Below are positions 1 to 7,602 of a DNA stretch of 64,000 bases, one piece after another (the first letter of the stretch is position 1; each line of letters begins with the position of its first letter). The position numbers and the translations under genes were made by a program. The notes below the pieces were generated by a model. The model searched no databases, was not told the DNA's origin, and saw nothing but the letters and a program-made list of their open reading frames with translations. This DNA comes from Candidatus Eiseniibacteriota bacterium (GTDB taxonomy: Bacteria; Eisenbacteria; RBG-16-71-46; CAIMUX01; VGJL01). The stretch covers positions 640,001 through 704,000 of the forward strand of contig CAWBWI010000006.1 of assembly GCA_963792585.1 (NCBI GenBank), given 5' to 3'.

Positions 1-122
1 CCGCATTCACCTGACGCGCTGGGCCGTCACGGCCCTGGCAGAGAAACCTAGAAGTTCGAACCATCACCTCGGGCTGCCAGGGCCGCGCCGGCCTCAGCTC
101 GCAGGTGATGCGAACGTTAGGC
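1..122 (+). repeat. attC, long family subtype A (5' end cut by window)
   Basis: CGCATTCACCTG...CAGGTGATGCGAAC GTTAGGC. Confidence 0.92.
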
Positions 123-149
123 GCAGTTGTCTCCTGTGAGGTAATAGCT

Positions 150-641
150 ATGATCTCAATACTGATGATGGCGTTCCTTCTCTCCCCATCAGCAGCCCTT
201 GCCTCCGCTGCCGACGAGGTTGATTTCGAGGCACATCTCGACGCTGAACAGGTTGTGCCGCCTACGGCATCCCCCGGGTCCGCTGTGGTCGCGATCTCAT
301 TCCAGGTCGAGGAGTTAAGCGATCCCCAGCCTGGCAACTTCGACATCGTCTGCGCTGATCTTTCGGGTCCGCCGACTGGCGTTTCCATTAGATGGGGCAA
401 CGCTAGCGAGAATGGTCCGCTTGCACTCACCATTCTCAACCGTTCATTCACTTGCCCAGCCAGTGGGGGCATTAGTGTCCCGTGGAGTGTCCTCAGTCAA
501 TTCTGGCATTCTGACACGCTCTATGTACTGATTCATACCGACGCGTTTCCCGATGGCGAGCTTCGCGGCCAATTCTCAAACGTGACTCCTCCGGCGGTCC
601 AGATGGAGTCCTGGGGATATGTCCGTGGCCTATTCCACTGA
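150..641 (+). CDS. Secreted CHRD-domain protein with C-terminal SWG..RGLFH tail
   Basis: Signal peptide; LYVLIHTDAFPDGELRGQ is a CHRD motif; GAGG RBS before ATG 150. Confidence 0.85.
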   Translation: MISILMMAFLLSPSAALASAADEVDFEAHLDAEQVVPPTASPGSAVVAISFQVEELSDPQPGNFDIVCADLSGPPTGVSIRWGNASENGPLALTILNRSFTCPASGGISVPWSVLSQFWHSDTLYVLIHTDAFPDGELRGQFSNVTPPAVQMESWGYVRGLFH

Positions 642-1501: not shown

Positions 1502-2168
1502 ATGAGTTCTTCCGACGAGAGGATTCACCCGTTCTTCCGGGCTACCAATCCGCATGGGAACGTCCGCTTCAACTTCCGATCCGCAGCTCCGGAAGAACTT
1601 GTGGCCTTTGCCATGGGTTACCACAAGGCTGGCCGCGTCCTCGTCAAGAGATTGGCACAGGCACCAGGGTATGCGGACTATGATGGCTATCCCATTCTCT
1701 ATCTCTACCGCCACGCCCTTGAGCTCTACTCTTAAGAGCATCATCTACAGAGGCGGAAAGTACCTCGGGCTCATGTCCGAACACACTCTGAATGCGGAAC
1801 GGTTCTTTGGTTCGCATGACCTCACGCGGCTACTACCTGCCGTGCGAGAGGTCTTTGATCACGTTGGGTGGCGCAGCGATCTTGGCATCCCCGGCCTCCT
1901 CACTTGGGTAGACTTCACGAAACTCGTCGAAGCGATTGACTCAATCGACCATGGTTCATACACCTTCAGGTATCCCATGGACAAGCGTGGGGCATCAGCA
2001 CTCCCCCATCACCTCGTGTTGAACGTTGTTGCCTTCGGCCAGCAAATGGATCCCGTCCTCGAGCTTCTAGATGGTGCCGCAAGTGGCCTCAGCGACAAGT
2101 GGGACAACGCAGCAGAGGCATGTTACTTCCTCCAAGAGATCGCAAAGGAATGGGGCAATGAAGCCTAA
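1502..2168 (+). pseudogene. HEPN-like protein, frameshifted near 1730
   Basis: YPILYLYRHALELY continues as LKSII...HDL in another frame; one extra base at ~1730; stop lies inside R''. Confidence 0.7.
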
Positions 2169-2865
2169 CAGCCGCATTCACCTGACGCACTGGGCCGTCA
2201 CGGCCCTGGCAGAGACGCATAGAAGGCAAGACCATCACCCGGGACTGCCAGGGCCGCGCCGGCCACAGCCCGCAGGTGATGCGAACGTTAGGCATCATTT
2301 CGCACTCAATCTTGGCGTCATCCCGATCGCGCTATTCGTCGCTGCATGGTTGTCCGCATCAATCGTGACCGCCGAACCCGTTGATGAATGCGGGCGGTTC
2401 TTCACCTCCACGGGCTGCGTTGAGTTCTACCCCGTACGAGGCCAGGCGATGTACATCACGGATCTCGACAGTCTTCCTCCGGGTGGAACCGAGATACCCT
2501 TCAGACTACGAGGTGATCTCGTTCAGCTCGAGCGGATCTGCGATGGTTGGCTCTTCCACGAATGCATCATCAATGCGGCAGTGCTTCCTTGCGAGCCTGA
2601 GTCTCTCGGGTGTGGAGTTCTTTCGAGAGATAACGAGGATGCGTGCTCGTACTGGACGTCGGCCAAGTACGGCATGTTGGTGACTGCCCTCAATGGTTTC
2701 TCGCCTGGGGATACGGTTCTGGCCGTAGGCATACTGGATTACTCGCTCGGAACTTGGTGCATCGGGATTGGCTTCATCGACAATCCCGTATTCTCCGCTT
2801 GCCCCGACTCGCTTTCGCCTGTCGTTCGCACTACCTGGGGCACTCTCAAGGCGATCTTCAGGTAG
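2158..2865 (+). CDS. Cys-rich secreted protein, TTWG-tail family paralog 1 (start uncertain)
   Basis: Signal-like stretch from ~2293; LGCGVL, FSPGDTV, ACPDS, TTWGTLKAIFR; nearest in-frame ATG ahead of the signal stretch is 2158, before the attC. Confidence 0.75.
   Translation: MKPNSRIHLTHWAVTALAETHRRQDHHPGLPGPRRPQPAGDANVRHHFALNLGVIPIALFVAAWLSASIVTAEPVDECGRFFTSTGCVEFYPVRGQAMYITDLDSLPPGGTEIPFRLRGDLVQLERICDGWLFHECIINAAVLPCEPESLGCGVLSRDNEDACSYWTSAKYGMLVTALNGFSPGDTVLAVGILDYSLGTWCIGIGFIDNPVFSACPDSLSPVVRTTWGTLKAIFR
2163..2293 (+). repeat. attC subtype A
   Basis: GCCTAAC...GTTAGGC. Confidence 0.95.
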
Positions 2866-2875
2866 GAGGTCTGAT

Positions 2876-3006
2876 GCCTAACAGACGCGTTCACCTGCCG
2901 GGCGGCTCCGTCACGGCCCTGGCGAGGAAGCCGATGAAGATGAATCACCACCCGGTGCCGCCAGGTCCGCGCCGGACCTCGCCCGCAGGTGACGCGAACG
3001 TTAGAT
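2876..3006 (+). repeat. attC subtype B
   Basis: GCCTAAC..CGCGTTCACCTGCCGGGCGG...CAGGTGACGCGAAC GTTAGAT; compensatory changes versus subtype A. Confidence 0.95.
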
Positions 3007-3029
3007 GAACTTGAGGTGGAGGTAGCGCC

Positions 3030-3662
3030 ATGCGTGACATAGCCCCAGATGAGGTGCCAGAAGCGCGCGCATCTTGTCAACCAGTGCTTCGACTCTTCTT
3101 ACTCTTCGCCGCCATCCTCCTCGTCGGCCCGGCGCATTCCGGACCGCCCCGATATGCTCCCGAGCGGGGCTACCTAACAACGGGCGTGCTACGTCGGCAA
3201 CCACCCGACACATGTCTCGTCCTCGTGAACCTCATGCAAGTTCCCCCTGCACTGCTCGACACCTATGACGCGTTCGCCGAGGGCGACACAGTAGTCGTTA
3301 CCGGCGATCTCCCGGTCAATCTCCCGAATCTCTTCTGCGGAGTTGAGTTCTGGATTCACCACAACCGAGTGTTTCCGTACAGGGGTGTGATTGACCTTGA
3401 GTGCGGCGTACTTGTTGAAGACGACCCAGGGGACTGCGGGTACTTTGACTCATTCCGATTTGGTAGGTTCCACACTGGCATGGGCCCTCCGTTTTCCGAT
3501 GGCGACTCGGTTCATGTCTGGGGCCGTTTCCGCGAAGACTGGTATTCATGGTGTTCCTCCGACTACCCGGCGACGGAAGTAACCAAGATCATTGCCTGCC
3601 CTGACACGAGTACTGCCGTCCAACCGACAACTTGGGGTCGGCTCCGGGTTCTCTTTCGGTAG
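3030..3662 (+). CDS. Cys-rich secreted protein, TTWG-tail family paralog 2
   Basis: GGAGG RBS, signal peptide, LECGVL, FSDGDSV, ACPDT, TTWGRLRVLFR. Confidence 0.85.
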   Translation: MRDIAPDEVPEARASCQPVLRLFLLFAAILLVGPAHSGPPRYAPERGYLTTGVLRRQPPDTCLVLVNLMQVPPALLDTYDAFAEGDTVVVTGDLPVNLPNLFCGVEFWIHHNRVFPYRGVIDLECGVLVEDDPGDCGYFDSFRFGRFHTGMGPPFSDGDSVHVWGRFREDWYSWCSSDYPATEVTKIIACPDTSTAVQPTTWGRLRVLFR

Positions 3663-3678
3663 GCAATATGTGGGAGTC

Positions 3679-3809
3679 ATCTAACTGCCGCGTTCACCTG
3701 CCGGGCGGGTCCGTCACGGCCCTGGCGAGGAAGCCTATGATGATAAATCACCACCTGGTGGCGCCAGGTCCGCGCCGGACCTCGCCCGCAGGTGACGCGA
3801 ACGTTAGAT
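3679..3809 (+). repeat. attC subtype B
   Basis: ATCTAAC...GTTAGAT. Confidence 0.95.
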
Positions 3810-3825
3810 GCCTTGGGGGTGCAGC

Positions 3826-4338
3826 ATGGGCGTAGCACCTGGCTTCATGGCAGCTTGCCTCTTGACTACCCTGCTGTATGGAGGAAGCAGTACTGCCCAC
3901 GCTGACCCCTTCGTCATTGGCGGAGTGCCAGTGTCCTATTCATTGGCCGATCTCAAGATTACCTTGTCATATGGCTTGTCCGACGAAGTAGTCCTCGACG
4001 GCTCCACTGGACAGGCCACGAGGACCGTCCGATCGTCGACGGACTCAACGCACGTGGTTACTCGCACTCTTGATGACAGGGAGGTTGTTGACCTTCTCAG
4101 TCGGTTCTACGAGATGCACTTCTTCGAATTCCCAGTGGAGTTCCATTCATTCTCTGGAATGGAGTTCAACCCCGATGGCCGATGGGTCAATACCGTCGCG
4201 GCTTGTACTGATCACTTCGCAACGCTTACTGTCCGCATAGGTTCATTCACGAAGGAAGTACGCATCCGCAAGACGTCTTCCCCACCAGTCCTTCTAGCAA
4301 TGGCCGATAGCCTCCGCACTCTTGCGAGGACGCGATGA
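3826..4338 (+). CDS. Secreted hypothetical protein (cassette; start 3808 or 3826)
   Basis: Signal peptide ending AHA; ORF fills the cassette. Confidence 0.75.
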   Translation: MGVAPGFMAACLLTTLLYGGSSTAHADPFVIGGVPVSYSLADLKITLSYGLSDEVVLDGSTGQATRTVRSSTDSTHVVTRTLDDREVVDLLSRFYEMHFFEFPVEFHSFSGMEFNPDGRWVNTVAACTDHFATLTVRIGSFTKEVRIRKTSSPPVLLAMADSLRTLARTR

Positions 4339-4348
4339 ACCACGAGGC

Positions 4349-4479
4349 ATCTAACTGCCGCATTCACCTGACGCGCTGGGTCGTCACGGCCCTGGCAGAG
4401 AAGCATAGCAGCTCGAACCATCACCCCGGGCTGCCAGGGCCGCGCCGGCCTCAGCCCGCAGGTGATGCGAACGTTAGAT
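4349..4479 (+). repeat. attC subtype A
   Basis: ATCTAAC...GTTAGAT. Confidence 0.95.
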
Positions 4480-4568
4480 GTGTGAGTTACTCAGCTCCGC
4501 CATTCCCTGACAGGGGGGCGCTGAAGTCAAGACAGGCAACGACAAACCAGAACCACCCTCAGAGAGGT

Positions 4569-4988
4569 TTGTCCAGCTTCCGCGCCCAATCCGCTCGGCG
4601 AGCAGGCTTTCTCACAGTGTTGCTTGCCTGCGCTAGTTTCGGTGGATGCGGCCTCAGGACCGTCTGCAAAGTCGGCACGGGAGCTCACGTCACGCAAGAA
4701 TGCCTTTCTTTGCGGATCAGGGCCGGGCAGGAAATCTGGGTCGATTCCACCTCGCGGGACCGGCAATCTGGGTATTACCTCGGCGTCCGAGACTTCGACG
4801 GTCAGCCAACCCTTGTCCTCGGACGCTATTCCCCGCTCCAGGCGTCCGGCTTCGACTCCAGCCGCATCCGAACGGACCACATACGACAGGTTCTGCGTCA
4901 TCGCGAGGCACCCTCCTACCTTGCCATCACCGCGATGGGAGGGATCGTCTTGGCGGGCGCGATCCTCATCGCCACTCAGGGGAGTTGA
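4569..4988 (+). CDS. Putative lipoprotein/membrane-anchored protein (start uncertain; frame open from ATG 4335)
   Basis: Lipobox-like FGGC and a C-terminal TM segment. Confidence 0.6.
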   Translation: MSSFRAQSARRAGFLTVLLACASFGGCGLRTVCKVGTGAHVTQECLSLRIRAGQEIWVDSTSRDRQSGYYLGVRDFDGQPTLVLGRYSPLQASGFDSSRIRTDHIRQVLRHREAPSYLAITAMGGIVLAGAILIATQGS

Positions 4989-5055
4989 GGCCCATGATGA
5001 TGCATTGGTCTACTCTGTTGTCTCTCTTCCATGAAGGGATCGAGCGTGCCTTCAC

Positions 5056-5186
5056 ATCTAACAGCCGCATTCACCTGACGCGCTGGGCCGTCACGGCCCT
5101 GGCAGAGAAGCATAGAAGCTCGGATCATCGCTTCGGGCTGCCAGGGCCGCGCCGGCCTCAGCTCGCAGGTGATGCGAACGTTAGGC
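5056..5186 (+). repeat. attC subtype A
   Basis: ATCTAAC...GTTAGGC. Confidence 0.95.
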
Positions 5187-5201
5187 ACGAAGGAGCCTCA
5201 G

Positions 5202-5780
5202 GTGAGAAGTAGCATCTTTCTTGGAGTGACCTGCTTGGCGGTCATCGCAGTAAGCGGACTAGCGGCGCCTTTCGATCGGTGTGGACAGATCAAGAGTACC
5301 CCGTATTGCGACCACTTCGCCCCGCTCTCTCCGACAGGTCCTTGGTACCGCATCGAGTTGCCATCGATGCCGGACACCTCGGCGCTCACCGTGTACCGTG
5401 TGATCGGCGAGACCATTCCTTCCGATGTGGAATGCAACCCTTCTTACAATGACTCGTGCATTGTCAATTGCAGCGTTTCCGTGTGTCCATCGGCGGATCT
5501 CGGATGCGGAGTACTTTCAAGAGTCTATGATCCCCGCATTGGGTACCTCTGCTTCATCTGGACATCGCCCGTCTACGGATCCCTCATAACACTCTCCAAC
5601 GGCTTCGTTCCTGGAGATACGGTCCACGTCGTAGGCATCGCTGACCGCAGAGGTGTAACTGGTCCATGTGACGTTGCCGAAGGGTACATATGGAACGAAG
5701 TGCTCACTGCTTGTTCAGACTCTGTTTCATCGACCGAGGAAACTACATGGGGAAGACTGAAGTTTCTCTTCCGGAGGTAA
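5202..5780 (+). CDS. Cys-rich secreted protein, TTWG-tail family paralog 3
   Basis: AAGGAG RBS + GTG; signal peptide; LGCGVL, FVPGDTV, ACSDS, TTWGRLKFLFRR. Confidence 0.85.
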   Translation: MRSSIFLGVTCLAVIAVSGLAAPFDRCGQIKSTPYCDHFAPLSPTGPWYRIELPSMPDTSALTVYRVIGETIPSDVECNPSYNDSCIVNCSVSVCPSADLGCGVLSRVYDPRIGYLCFIWTSPVYGSLITLSNGFVPGDTVHVVGIADRRGVTGPCDVAEGYIWNEVLTACSDSVSSTEETTWGRLKFLFRR

Positions 5781-5788
5781 TGGCAGGT

Positions 5789-5918
5789 GCGTAACAGCCG
5801 CGTTCACCTGCCGGGCGGATCCGTCACGGCCCTGGCGAGGAAGCAATGAAGATGAATCACCACCTGCTGCCGCCAGGACCGCGCCGGACCTCGCCCGCAG
5901 GTGACGCGAACGTTAGAA
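5789..5918 (+). repeat. attC subtype B (130 bp)
   Basis: GCGTAAC...GTTAGAA; one base shorter in the loop. Confidence 0.92.
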
Positions 5919-5942
5919 CGTCTTACCTGCACGGAGGAGCAA

Positions 5943-6896
5943 GTGTCCGTCGATAAATGCCCAGTCTGCCACATCGTGCTGGCCCAGCCCGTCTGCGAGC
6001 ACTTCGACAGGGACGCACGAACCTACCCATGCTCTAACTGCGGTGAGTTCACGCTCACACGGCCCTCGGAGATGTTTGTGGCAGAGCTTGGCCGCGACGC
6101 CCCAAGGAAGCTCCTGGTTCTTAGCCACGCCATACGCAAGATGGTAGTCAGGTCTACAAACCCGACTCTGCTTCCTGAACTGATTCGACAGATCGCCGAG
6201 AACACCGACCTACCCAACCCGGATGAGCAACTGACAAATCTGCTTCTCTGGCTTGGCCAGAACCTCGACCACCTCGGAGAGATGATCCAACTCCTACCGG
6301 AGGAGCATGCGGCGGTAATCGGCTCAGCAGGCGATGATAACTTCGTTGCCGTCTGTACCGAACTCAGTGATCGCGGTTGGTTCGTCGGCACAGCGACAAC
6401 CGGGCCAACATTCATAGGCTCTCTCTCCTTCGACGGTTGGCGGGTCTATCAGAAGCTGAGAAGAGGTCTCGCGGAGTCTCGCAAGGCGTTCATGGCGATG
6501 GCGTATGGCGATGGCGTGCTGGATGCTCTCTTCCGGGATTGCCTGAAACCGGCTGTAGCCAAGACAGGTTTTGACCTCCGAAGACTCGACGAAGATCTTC
6601 GGGCCGGGTTGATTGACGACCGGCTTCGCGTCGAGATCCTCACAAGTCGGTTTCTGATTGCGGACCTTACTAACGACAATCGTGGCGCCTACTGGGAAGC
6701 GGGTTATGCAGAGGGTTTGGGTAAGCCTGTCATCTACCTGTGTGAGCGGGCATATTTCGATGAGAGGAAGACTCATTTCGACACGAACCATCAGCACACG
6801 GTTCTCTGGAACTCCTCTCAGCCGACGGCTCTTGCCTCTTCACTGAAGGTAACGATTCGCGCGACCCTACCGGAGGAAGCCGTTCTTGAGGACTAG
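5943..6896 (+). CDS. Zn-ribbon + nucleoside 2-deoxyribosyltransferase/TIR-like domain protein
   Basis: CPVC...CSNC; AFMAM...IADLT..N.GAYWEAGYAEGLGKPVIY. Confidence 0.8.
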   Translation: MSVDKCPVCHIVLAQPVCEHFDRDARTYPCSNCGEFTLTRPSEMFVAELGRDAPRKLLVLSHAIRKMVVRSTNPTLLPELIRQIAENTDLPNPDEQLTNLLLWLGQNLDHLGEMIQLLPEEHAAVIGSAGDDNFVAVCTELSDRGWFVGTATTGPTFIGSLSFDGWRVYQKLRRGLAESRKAFMAMAYGDGVLDALFRDCLKPAVAKTGFDLRRLDEDLRAGLIDDRLRVEILTSRFLIADLTNDNRGAYWEAGYAEGLGKPVIYLCERAYFDERKTHFDTNHQHTVLWNSSQPTALASSLKVTIRATLPEEAVLED

Positions 6897-7093: not shown

Positions 7094-7387
7094 ATGGTAG
7101 ATCTTCGCTTTGAGTGGGATAGCCAGAAGGCCGTAGCCAATCTGCGCAAGCATGCCATTTCCTTCGAGGAGGCCGTCAGTGTCTTCTCGGATGAACATGC
7201 ATTGCTACTTACCGACCCCGATCACTCCGAAGCCGAAGACAGGTTCATTCTCCTTGGCCTCAGTGCGGACCTTCGAGCCCTCGTCGTCTGCCACTGCTAC
7301 CGCCAGGAGGAGGTCATTCGCATATTCTCTGCTCGGCGCGCAACCAAGAAGGAGCGGGAGCAGTACAACAGAAGGTGGATGCAATGA
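7094..7387 (+). CDS. brnT: BrnT family toxin
   Basis: FEWDSQKAVANLRKHAISFEEA...EDRF...IRIFSARRATKKE. Confidence 0.9.
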   Translation: MVDLRFEWDSQKAVANLRKHAISFEEAVSVFSDEHALLLTDPDHSEAEDRFILLGLSADLRALVVCHCYRQEEVIRIFSARRATKKEREQYNRRWMQ

Positions 7388-7602
7388 GGAAGGAATACGA
7401 CTTCACCAAGGCCAAGCGCAATCCCTATGCAGCACGCCTCAAGCGGCAGGTGACGATCAGGCTCGACGGCGGCACGATCAAGTATTTCAAGGATCTCGCC
7501 GAGGAAACAGGAATCCCTTACCAGACCCTGATCAACCTCTACCTGAGGGAGTGCGCTGCTAATCGCAAGAAGCTCTCCCTAAGCTGGATGGGCACAGCCT
7601 AG
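7384..7602 (+). CDS. brnA: BrnA/CopG-like antitoxin
   Basis: MRKEYDF...VTIRLD...GIPYQTLINLYL; ATGA overlap with the toxin. Confidence 0.85.
   Translation: MRKEYDFTKAKRNPYAARLKRQVTIRLDGGTIKYFKDLAEETGIPYQTLINLYLRECAANRKKLSLSWMGTA

Follow-up and report, generated by a model that had tools for sequence, protein, structure and literature searches.

The window, a stretch of 64,000 nucleotides from a Candidatus Eiseniibacteriota genome, carries part of a 47-kb integron cassette array that begins about 19 kb upstream of it. The array follows an integron integrase gene (TIGR02249, 431.9 bits against a cut-off of 265; G000:C6:619076-620020), which lies about 1 kb ahead of the first cassette and points in the same direction as the cassettes. 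Three cassette genes and their attC sites are considered here:

2163..2293, + strand: attC site of type A belonging to the preceding cassette; the top-strand frame is open from an ATG at 2158 and continues in frame into gene 1
2287..2865, + strand: gene 1 (array cassette 30), with a signal-like hydrophobic segment, two repeats resembling DUF5818 (2374-2811) and a TWG tail; start codon uncertain
2812..2862, + strand: C-terminal end of gene 1, a linker plus the TWG tail
2876..3006, + strand: attC site of type B after gene 1
3030..3662, + strand: gene 2 (cassette 31), with a signal-like segment, two repeats (3141-3608) and a TWG tail
3609..3659, + strand: end of gene 2 with linker and TWG tail; the low-confidence model shows a flexible linker followed by a short helix
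3679..3809, + strand: attC site of type B after gene 2
5202..5780, + strand: gene 3 (cassette 34), which starts with GTG behind a GGAG and has two repeats (5265-5723) plus a TWG tail
5789..5918, + strand: attC site of type B after gene 3, 1 nt shorter than the other two

All three are integron cassettes, each a single ORF followed by an attC site (RYYYAAC...GTTRRRY with a bottom-strand hairpin) in an array linked to an integron integrase. The ORF ends at 2865, 3662 and 5780 were confirmed, as were the three B sites, which fold into attC-type hairpins (z -6.9 to -8.8 versus 200 shuffles); the core of the third, GCGTAAC, shows one mismatch to the attC consensus. No ATG, GTG or TTG is found within the cassette of gene 1 upstream of its hydrophobic segment. 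Rfam returned nothing but sub-threshold miRNA matches across L002 2200-4000. Among metagenome contigs, record 1 of X1, which may be the source sample, spans 2268-2758 without a gap, and the exact B-arm pattern gave 0 matches. Runs X2-X4 carry the same attC types in different flanking DNA, and these altered flanks, like the duplicated cassettes, bear only indirectly on a presumed IntI-driven shuffling. A literature search on Eisenbacteria and integrons found no relevant paper.

Based on the window, the sequence-only reading had tied the gene family one-to-one to attC type B and proposed that gene and site were duplicated as one co-inherited unit. Within the window, pure B sites indeed occur only after family genes (3/3; the window has 16 long attC sites, 3 of them pure B; Fisher p=0.0018). 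Across the whole array, tested over the 42 long attC sites with the short distal types D13-D15 set aside, a lean remains (B on 3/7 family genes versus 4/35 others), yet the association fades (p=0.077). The tie is unsupported because the upstream part of the same array breaks it: there, 0/4 family genes carry B and 4/4 pure B sites follow non-family genes, so that the apparent tie is a window-edge artefact. In total, the array holds seven family genes, three with B and four with A, and 4/7 pure B sites follow unrelated genes. Family membership is independent of attC type. Genes 2 and 3 share 33% and 39% identity with gene 1, and the three B-linked genes are given as 35-38% identical to one another, whereas the closest paralog of gene 3 is cassette 8 upstream (61% identity), with a near-equal stop-to-attC spacer and yet an A site. 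Hybrid A/B sites (3/42 long sites) also speak against a fixed unit. The same holds for the attC tree, where, with classes assigned by marker typing plus this tree drawn without support values, the B-linked family sites are scattered, and for the 16 homologs from other genomes, 0/16 of which show an A- or B-like sequence downstream. For assigning types, markers and tree were preferred to pairwise attC identities, which disregard gaps and make A and B look too similar. Co-duplication of gene and attC is genuine for type-C cassettes of this array (3/3), but for the family studied here we give the co-inherited unit almost no credence, and its one-to-one form is refuted. What stands of the proposed duplication and diversification is the family itself, which by sequence comparison comprises seven cassette copies of two-repeat DUF5818-related proteins, four of them on A sites. 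Homologous recombination may exchange both repeats and attC types among such paralogs. When genome contigs were scanned for loci related to gene 3, one match came up; we dismissed it as spurious, its sole motif-bearing ORF looking to us like ribosomal protein L3.

The motifs L[GE]CGVL, F..GD[TS]V, AC[PS]D[ST] and TTWG were all verified in the three genes, and the two halves align to each other as tandem repeats (hhalign probability 96%, E 1.4e-9). Together with the models, this supports the picture of signal-peptide-bearing, Cys-stapled, two-repeat proteins. In an alignment of six members, inspected by eye, no lipobox Cys stands where the mature protein is predicted to begin. The family had been called unrecognised, and the window proteins do miss Pfam and NCBIfam; for the repeat itself, a remote relationship emerges from profile-profile comparison, which identifies it as a divergent DUF5818-like domain (PF19135). 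At the sequence level, the window proteins show no match to DUF5818 at E<=0.1 and the upstream paralogs reach 12-13 bits, short of the 27 bits required by the gathering threshold. A profile built from 34 repeats of DUF5818-positive homologs, however, matches either half of the family (hhalign 98.7%, E ~1e-16) and ranks all seven family ORFs within the top eight of the genome. These bridging proteins were retrieved with the family profile and pass the Pfam cut-off independently; 47/72 scanned homologs reach the gathering score, one of them a two-repeat TWG protein. ESM Atlas gave nothing usable for gene 1 and only unnamed clusters (0.76) for P0089, and a literature search on DUF5818 found no paper. 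The genes evolve under purifying selection (overall dN/dS 0.08-0.52 in three pairs); positively selected hypervariable loops, as initially pictured, were not seen in these three pairs at 17-18 codons per loop.

Sec export and an OB fold are predicted. AlphaFold models of gene 1 (pLDDT 94.4) and gene 2 (84.7) both consist of two five-stranded repeats, in line with the OB-like fold first suggested, here predicted as five-stranded OB barrels; Foldseek against the PDB gave no match at E<=1e-3. In two wide fold searches, NigD-type OB domains and potempin A ranked at the top: NigD-like 5bmt scored Z 7.2 and 8.3 and potempin A (8b2n) Z 7.0 and 7.1 (rmsd 3.0; 75 and 73 of 92 residues aligned), where values of 7 to 8.3 lie in the range that a common fold can give according to the tool. 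PotD followed with Z 5.7 and 6.7, PotC with Z 5.2 in one search only; YgiW and NlpE were among the other top matches.

Cysteines appear and disappear strictly two by two (n=77): C6/C73 (p 8e-15), C125/C134 (p 7e-13) and C52/C64 (p 5e-8). From this covariation we predict disulfides C6-C73, C52-C64 and C125-C134, and by elimination C15-C56, C91-C129 and C80-C143; repeat 1 of gene 2 lacks the C6-C73 pair. The invariant cysteines map to the loop joining β4 and β5 and to the β1-β2 hairpin, and the covariation implies that disulfides staple the β4-β5 loop. Alternatively, the cysteines could serve periplasmic metal binding or redox chemistry, as in a SilF/CusF-like OB carrier or a thiol buffer. Most short homologs do carry 8-14 Cys, and the fold searches list the OB domains of SilF and SilB (Z 4.9-5.3), but strictly coupled pairs are typical of structural disulfides and the alignment has no conserved His or Met column, which makes this role improbable.

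The TTWG end, regarded before as a family mark, is generic: in this Eisenbacteria-like genome, 113 ORFs from 48 families end with it, including a CHRD cassette in the window (105-641) with an A-type attC site. The tail comprises about 16 residues and sits strictly at the C-terminus of unrelated exported proteins, with 8 residues between Trp and the C-terminal end in 101/113 ORFs and no hydrophobic helix. Since known anchors (T9SS, dockerin or IPTL-CTERM) occupy the same position in homologs, it is likely a sorting tag, and its occurrence at an anchor position on the same repeat makes the case for a sorting signal stronger. It would address the proteins to the envelope or surface. Tripartite sorting signals, in the excerpt of 10.1101/2023.06.07.544157, combine a motif, a transmembrane helix and a basic cluster; the tail lacks this build, IPTL-CTERM included, and four short TWG homologs showed no IPTL match. 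XrtH (TIGR04177) has 0 matches in this 84%-complete genome, in which two other exosortases are present. Neither is the tail a T9SS type A cargo domain, an Ig-like C-terminal domain of about 75 residues: Pfam and NCBIfam gave no match, and by regex the 113 TWG ORFs and 141 CTD-like ORFs do not overlap (0). Fifteen of the 113 tagged ORFs lie inside the array, which makes up 0.9% of the genome, suggesting that the integron is stocked with exported proteins of the host's own lineage. Literature searches on the C-terminal motif, and on Eisenbacteria and type IX secretion, found no relevant paper.

Our best guess for the function, at a probability of about 0.4, is that these exported, disulfide-stapled twin OB barrels are two-headed proteins that bind or inhibit extracellular proteases in a potempin-like manner. 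This reading builds on subtilase-fused homologs and on the potempin-like fold and loop/disulfide layout. Tied by a disulfide to the β1-β2 hairpin, the β4-β5 loop of each barrel would sit like a substrate in a protease cleft, and the integrase would shuffle variants differing in specificity. An S8 subtilase lies downstream of the repeats in 4/72 scanned homologs, but the four fusions look like one lineage and hence one event. Also in favour, the host genome has 26 S8 matches, all 17 S8 ORFs inspected by eye carry a T9SS-like C-terminal tail, and PorU and eight PorV score above cut-off. Against it, no protease gene was seen by eye within 1.5 kb of 16 homolog loci or 14 single-domain DUF5818 loci. 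An ORF near a subtilase (C3:1096868; repeat profile E 0.023) was rejected because the Cys pattern is absent. Nor does any preferred P1 residue type follow the loop Cys over 495 repeats. A predicted complex of gene 1 (alignment A4) with one host subtilase catalytic domain (A5) scored 0.01 in two runs whose controls did not fold, and this speaks neither for nor against the reading.

OB folds outside the cytoplasm have a wide range of ligands, and the twin barrels may instead be adhesins or decoys that bind a surface glycan, a matrix polymer, a foreign-cell surface protein or a phage part, with specificities supplied by cassettes. Uncharacterised NigD-like proteins score equal to or higher than potempins, and YgiW and NlpE stand beside them. 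Many homologs are long poly-repeat proteins (up to 2403 aa) with dockerin-like (31/156) or T9SS (17/156) ends, which fits adhesion or spacing as well as inhibition. Cassette proteins are also enriched for signal peptides (16.1% versus 6.8% in the excerpt of PMC10661359). This explanation, a serious contender at somewhat under even odds, leaves the subtilase fusion and the potempin-like disulfide layout unexplained; no ligand is indicated, and six family members had 0 matches in PHROGs. As for the protease-binding reading in its fullest form, an integron-shuffled repertoire of double-headed OB-fold inhibitors that diversifies as cassettes exchange repeats and is addressed by a C-terminal tag undescribed so far and found across phyla, we consider it rather unlikely. 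A function that is cheap to test is proposed for DUF5818, and the proteins are small and expected to be easy to express.

Paralogous cassette families as such are ordinary. The excerpt of PMC1382264 on large chromosomal integrons of Vibrio likewise describes repeated cassette families, besides ORF-less cassettes and attC gene conversion; here, in contrast, what recurs are families of secreted proteins, Cys-rich or CHRD, that have a tail in common, and intI and cassettes point the same way. With PEP-CTERM, IPTL-CTERM and the T9SS type A CTD, the TWG tail shares its strict C-terminal position and many copies on unrelated exported proteins, and it replaces anchors of these classes on homologous repeats, whereas it is only about 16 residues long and has neither a transmembrane helix nor an Ig-like domain. 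Compared with DUF5818, the window proteins have two repeats, extra disulfides and the TWG tail, and are often found on cassettes. The NigD-like N-terminal OB domains of Bacteroidota (5bmt, 3k6o, 4j8q, 4pqx) are the best fold matches (Z 6.2-8.3), yet a PDB sequence-profile search gave 0 matches at E<=1, and in NigD-like proteins the second domain next to the OB domain is of another kind.

The OB-fold potempins PotA, PotC and PotD of Tannerella forsythia (8b2n, 8ehe, 8ehb) have functional loops between β4 and β5, and PotC inhibits a subtilase with a loop disulfide-tied to a scaffold loop (PMC9890683). Potempins are located beside their target peptidases. Our models share the predicted five-stranded barrel, with middling Z-scores, the β4-β5 loop, whose exposure is assumed, and a staple as in PotC, and the host has many T9SS-type proteases. 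Potempins have a single barrel, the window proteins two; identity between them is 9-18%, and the window proteins differ further in lacking a lipoprotein signal, in having unrelated cassettes as neighbours in place of a peptidase gene directly downstream, and in that their inhibitory role is putative. If the protease-inhibitor reading in its fullest form is true, DUF5818 would gain a function and the potempin mechanism would reach far beyond Tannerella.

The integron integrase is encoded at C6:619076-620020 of the host genome (TIGR02249, 431.9 bits; cut-off 265), in the same orientation as the cassettes, and the array extends from approximately C6:620983 to 667780, with the window (C6:640001-704000) starting mid-array. 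Between the integrase gene and the first cassette (within C6:619000-620980; locus L001, 15000-17000) lies what we take to be a MazEF-like toxin-antitoxin pair. The array contains 42 long attC sites (~120-124 nt), 26 of which precede the first complete cassette of the window. Other window cassettes carry a pair that is presumably BrnT/BrnA-like (7094-7602) and a 331-aa protein (5901-6896) with a Zn-finger-like N-terminus, a weak, sub-threshold similarity to nucleoside deoxyribosyltransferase (E 0.001) and possibly a defence role. The cassette ORF at 1501-2168 appears frameshifted near 1735, across two overlapping frames, reflecting an assembly indel or a pseudogene. Degenerate A-type site clusters and one isolated B site were seen away from the integrase (C1:1934600-1941700, C1:267237-269300, C1:1880075-1881480, C3:1030022).

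The sequence-only reading described three ORFs ending at 2865, 3662 and 5780 (genes 1, 2 and 3; cassettes 30, 31 and 34), their shared motifs and three type-B attC sites (2876-3006, 3679-3809, 5789-5918), all of which we confirmed. Its proposed one-to-one tie between these genes and pure (non-hybrid) B sites is perfect inside the window (family with B, family without B, B without family, neither: 3/0/0/13, p=0.0018) and dissolves over the whole array (3/4/4/31, p=0.077). Upstream of the window, tblastn revealed four additional members (cassettes 8, 10, 14 and 21), all followed by pure A sites, while the four pure-B sites there all follow unrelated genes. The B-linked genes are mutually only 35-38% identical. 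Gene 3 shares 61% identity and an almost identical stop-to-attC spacer with cassette 8, and the site type changes directly after this spacer. This pair is a mosaic: dS between the two is 1.1 for repeat 1, against 0.28 for repeat 2 and 0.18 for the tail, which suggests recombination between paralogs, and the three hybrid A/B sites of the array indicate likewise. In Vibrio arrays, gene conversion of attC sites and families of paralogous cassettes have both been described (PMC1382264). The cassette family is real; its one-to-one attC-B tie is an artefact.

The family was found in 10/60 relatives and in at least 11/205 further genomes of the phylum, where scoring covered 19 candidates each. Homolog sources include one same-family and two same-order genomes, all labelled Candidatus Eisenbacteria, and the host is accordingly treated as Eisenbacteria-like. 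Sixteen homolog ORFs were inspected for attC hairpins: three are clearly and four probably (by eye) followed by one, and nine are not. None of the 16 showed an A- or B-like downstream site. A 342-bp cassette family (locus L002; C6:622323-622800, 623402-623880, 637232-637710), whose copies share 80-92% DNA identity, is linked in 3/3 cases to a third, 124-nt attC type. These form a real gene-body and attC unit, possibly non-coding: no recognisable gene was found, and Rfam gave nothing above threshold.

The genes are genuine: the three alignable family pairs showed dN/dS values of 0.35, 0.52 and 0.08, and public contig sets (one of which, X1, is possibly the source sample) contain pieces nearly identical to each of the three. 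No canonical start was found for gene 1 within its own cassette, and its reading frame matches that of an ORF from 2158 running across the preceding attC; the gene may therefore need a non-canonical start or have a long N-terminal extension. Read from the AAC on the top strand, the frame is open across 32/36 proximal attC sites (C6:621504-647740) and each other frame across 4/36; being homologous, the sites give non-independent counts. An in-frame start lies within 30 nt at 26 of them, and the open frame reads into family cassettes 10, 14, 21 and 30. Translation across attC may occur.

A second cassette family combines a signal peptide, a CHRD or CHRD-like domain and the short C-terminal TTWG-type motif (TWG tail):

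Window 105-641: CHRD cassette, domain confirmed by Pfam
C6:620983-621489: CHRD or CHRD-like cassette, judged from sequence
C6:621634-622191: CHRD or CHRD-like cassette, judged from sequence
C6:636561-637097: CHRD or CHRD-like cassette, judged from sequence

Homolog P0010 likewise combines CHRD with the Cys repeats, a fusion weakly indicated for P0041, P0125 and P0127.

By a strict pattern, the TWG motif ends 113 ORFs from 48 sequence families, whereas its frequency at internal positions would predict 0.3. The last residue of the motif is the C-terminus in 101/113, and 15/113 lie in the array. By a crude rule, 96/113 have a signal-like start, compared to 1027/4161 long ORFs (the latter including shadow frames). 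Signal-peptide enrichment in cassettes is already known (PMC10661359). Classified by regular expression, the C-termini of 156 homologs comprise TWG (83), dockerin-like (31), T9SS domain (17), transmembrane plus basic (4), IPTL-CTERM (1) and other or partial (20). The TWG tail therefore takes the position held by known anchors. Unlike tripartite signals, it lacks a transmembrane helix. The term is absent from the accessible main text of 10.1101/2023.06.07.544157, and the tag is undescribed.

The sequence-only reading did not recognise the family, and the window proteins indeed have no match in Pfam, NCBIfam, PHROGs or PDB sequences; a remote relation to DUF5818 nevertheless emerged. A profile from 21 sequences retrieved 473 representatives (E<=1e-3). 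The 150 listed comprise two-repeat forms like genes 1-3 and long poly-repeat proteins that reach 2403 aa. The DUF5818 cut-off was passed by 47 of 72 homologs scanned (out of 156), and a profile built from the repeats of passing proteins alone aligns with both family halves (98.7% probability). The family is therefore related to DUF5818 as a divergent branch with two repeats, without formally belonging to it. The products of gene 1 (pLDDT 94.4, pTM 0.83) and gene 2 (pLDDT 84.7) are each predicted by AlphaFold to form two five-stranded barrels. As suspected from the sequence, both models match OB folds, with Z reaching 8.3 for NigD-like domains, which rank first, and 7.0 and 7.1 for potempin A, a Tannerella protease inhibitor; these values back the fold and say nothing for function. 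C15, C56, C91 and C129 are conserved in all 77 two-repeat homologs examined and C80 and C143 in nearly all, and C6/C73, C52/C64 and C125/C134 are gained and lost as pairs. By elimination, we infer that the β4-β5 loop cysteine of each repeat pairs with that of the β1-β2 hairpin.

By analogy with potempins and from predicted models, we tentatively propose an exported protease-binding or inhibiting protein (probability roughly 0.4). In four related homologs the repeats precede an S8 subtilase, and the host genome is rich in S8 enzymes with T9SS-like tails. It also encodes PorU, eight PorV and an SprA-like translocon locus in pieces (C4:17198-21309), split across several frames, probably by assembly indels. 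Against protease binding stand the middling fold score, the fusion, which was probably a single event, the fact that no protease gene was seen adjoining homologs or single-domain DUF5818 genes, and no P1 preference in the loop; binding of another extracellular ligand is given nearly the same probability. The single-domain DUF5818 genes found in other families within the phylum (loci L076-L081, L084) often adjoin the same neighbour gene, which is not a protease.

Within the open-access literature searched (subscription journals mostly lie outside its coverage), we found no mention of DUF5818 and no paper on Eisenbacteria with integrons or with type IX secretion. The family offers a testable inhibitor hypothesis together with an undescribed tag. 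According to PMC9890683, OB-fold potempins inhibit peptidases via loops between β4 and β5, and the PotC loop, disulfide-tied to a scaffold loop, acts as a standard-mechanism inhibitor of a subtilase. If the protease reading holds, the family repeats would act likewise through stapled β4-β5 loops, their predicted layout, a β4-β5 loop with a disulfide to a scaffold loop, being the same as that of PotC.
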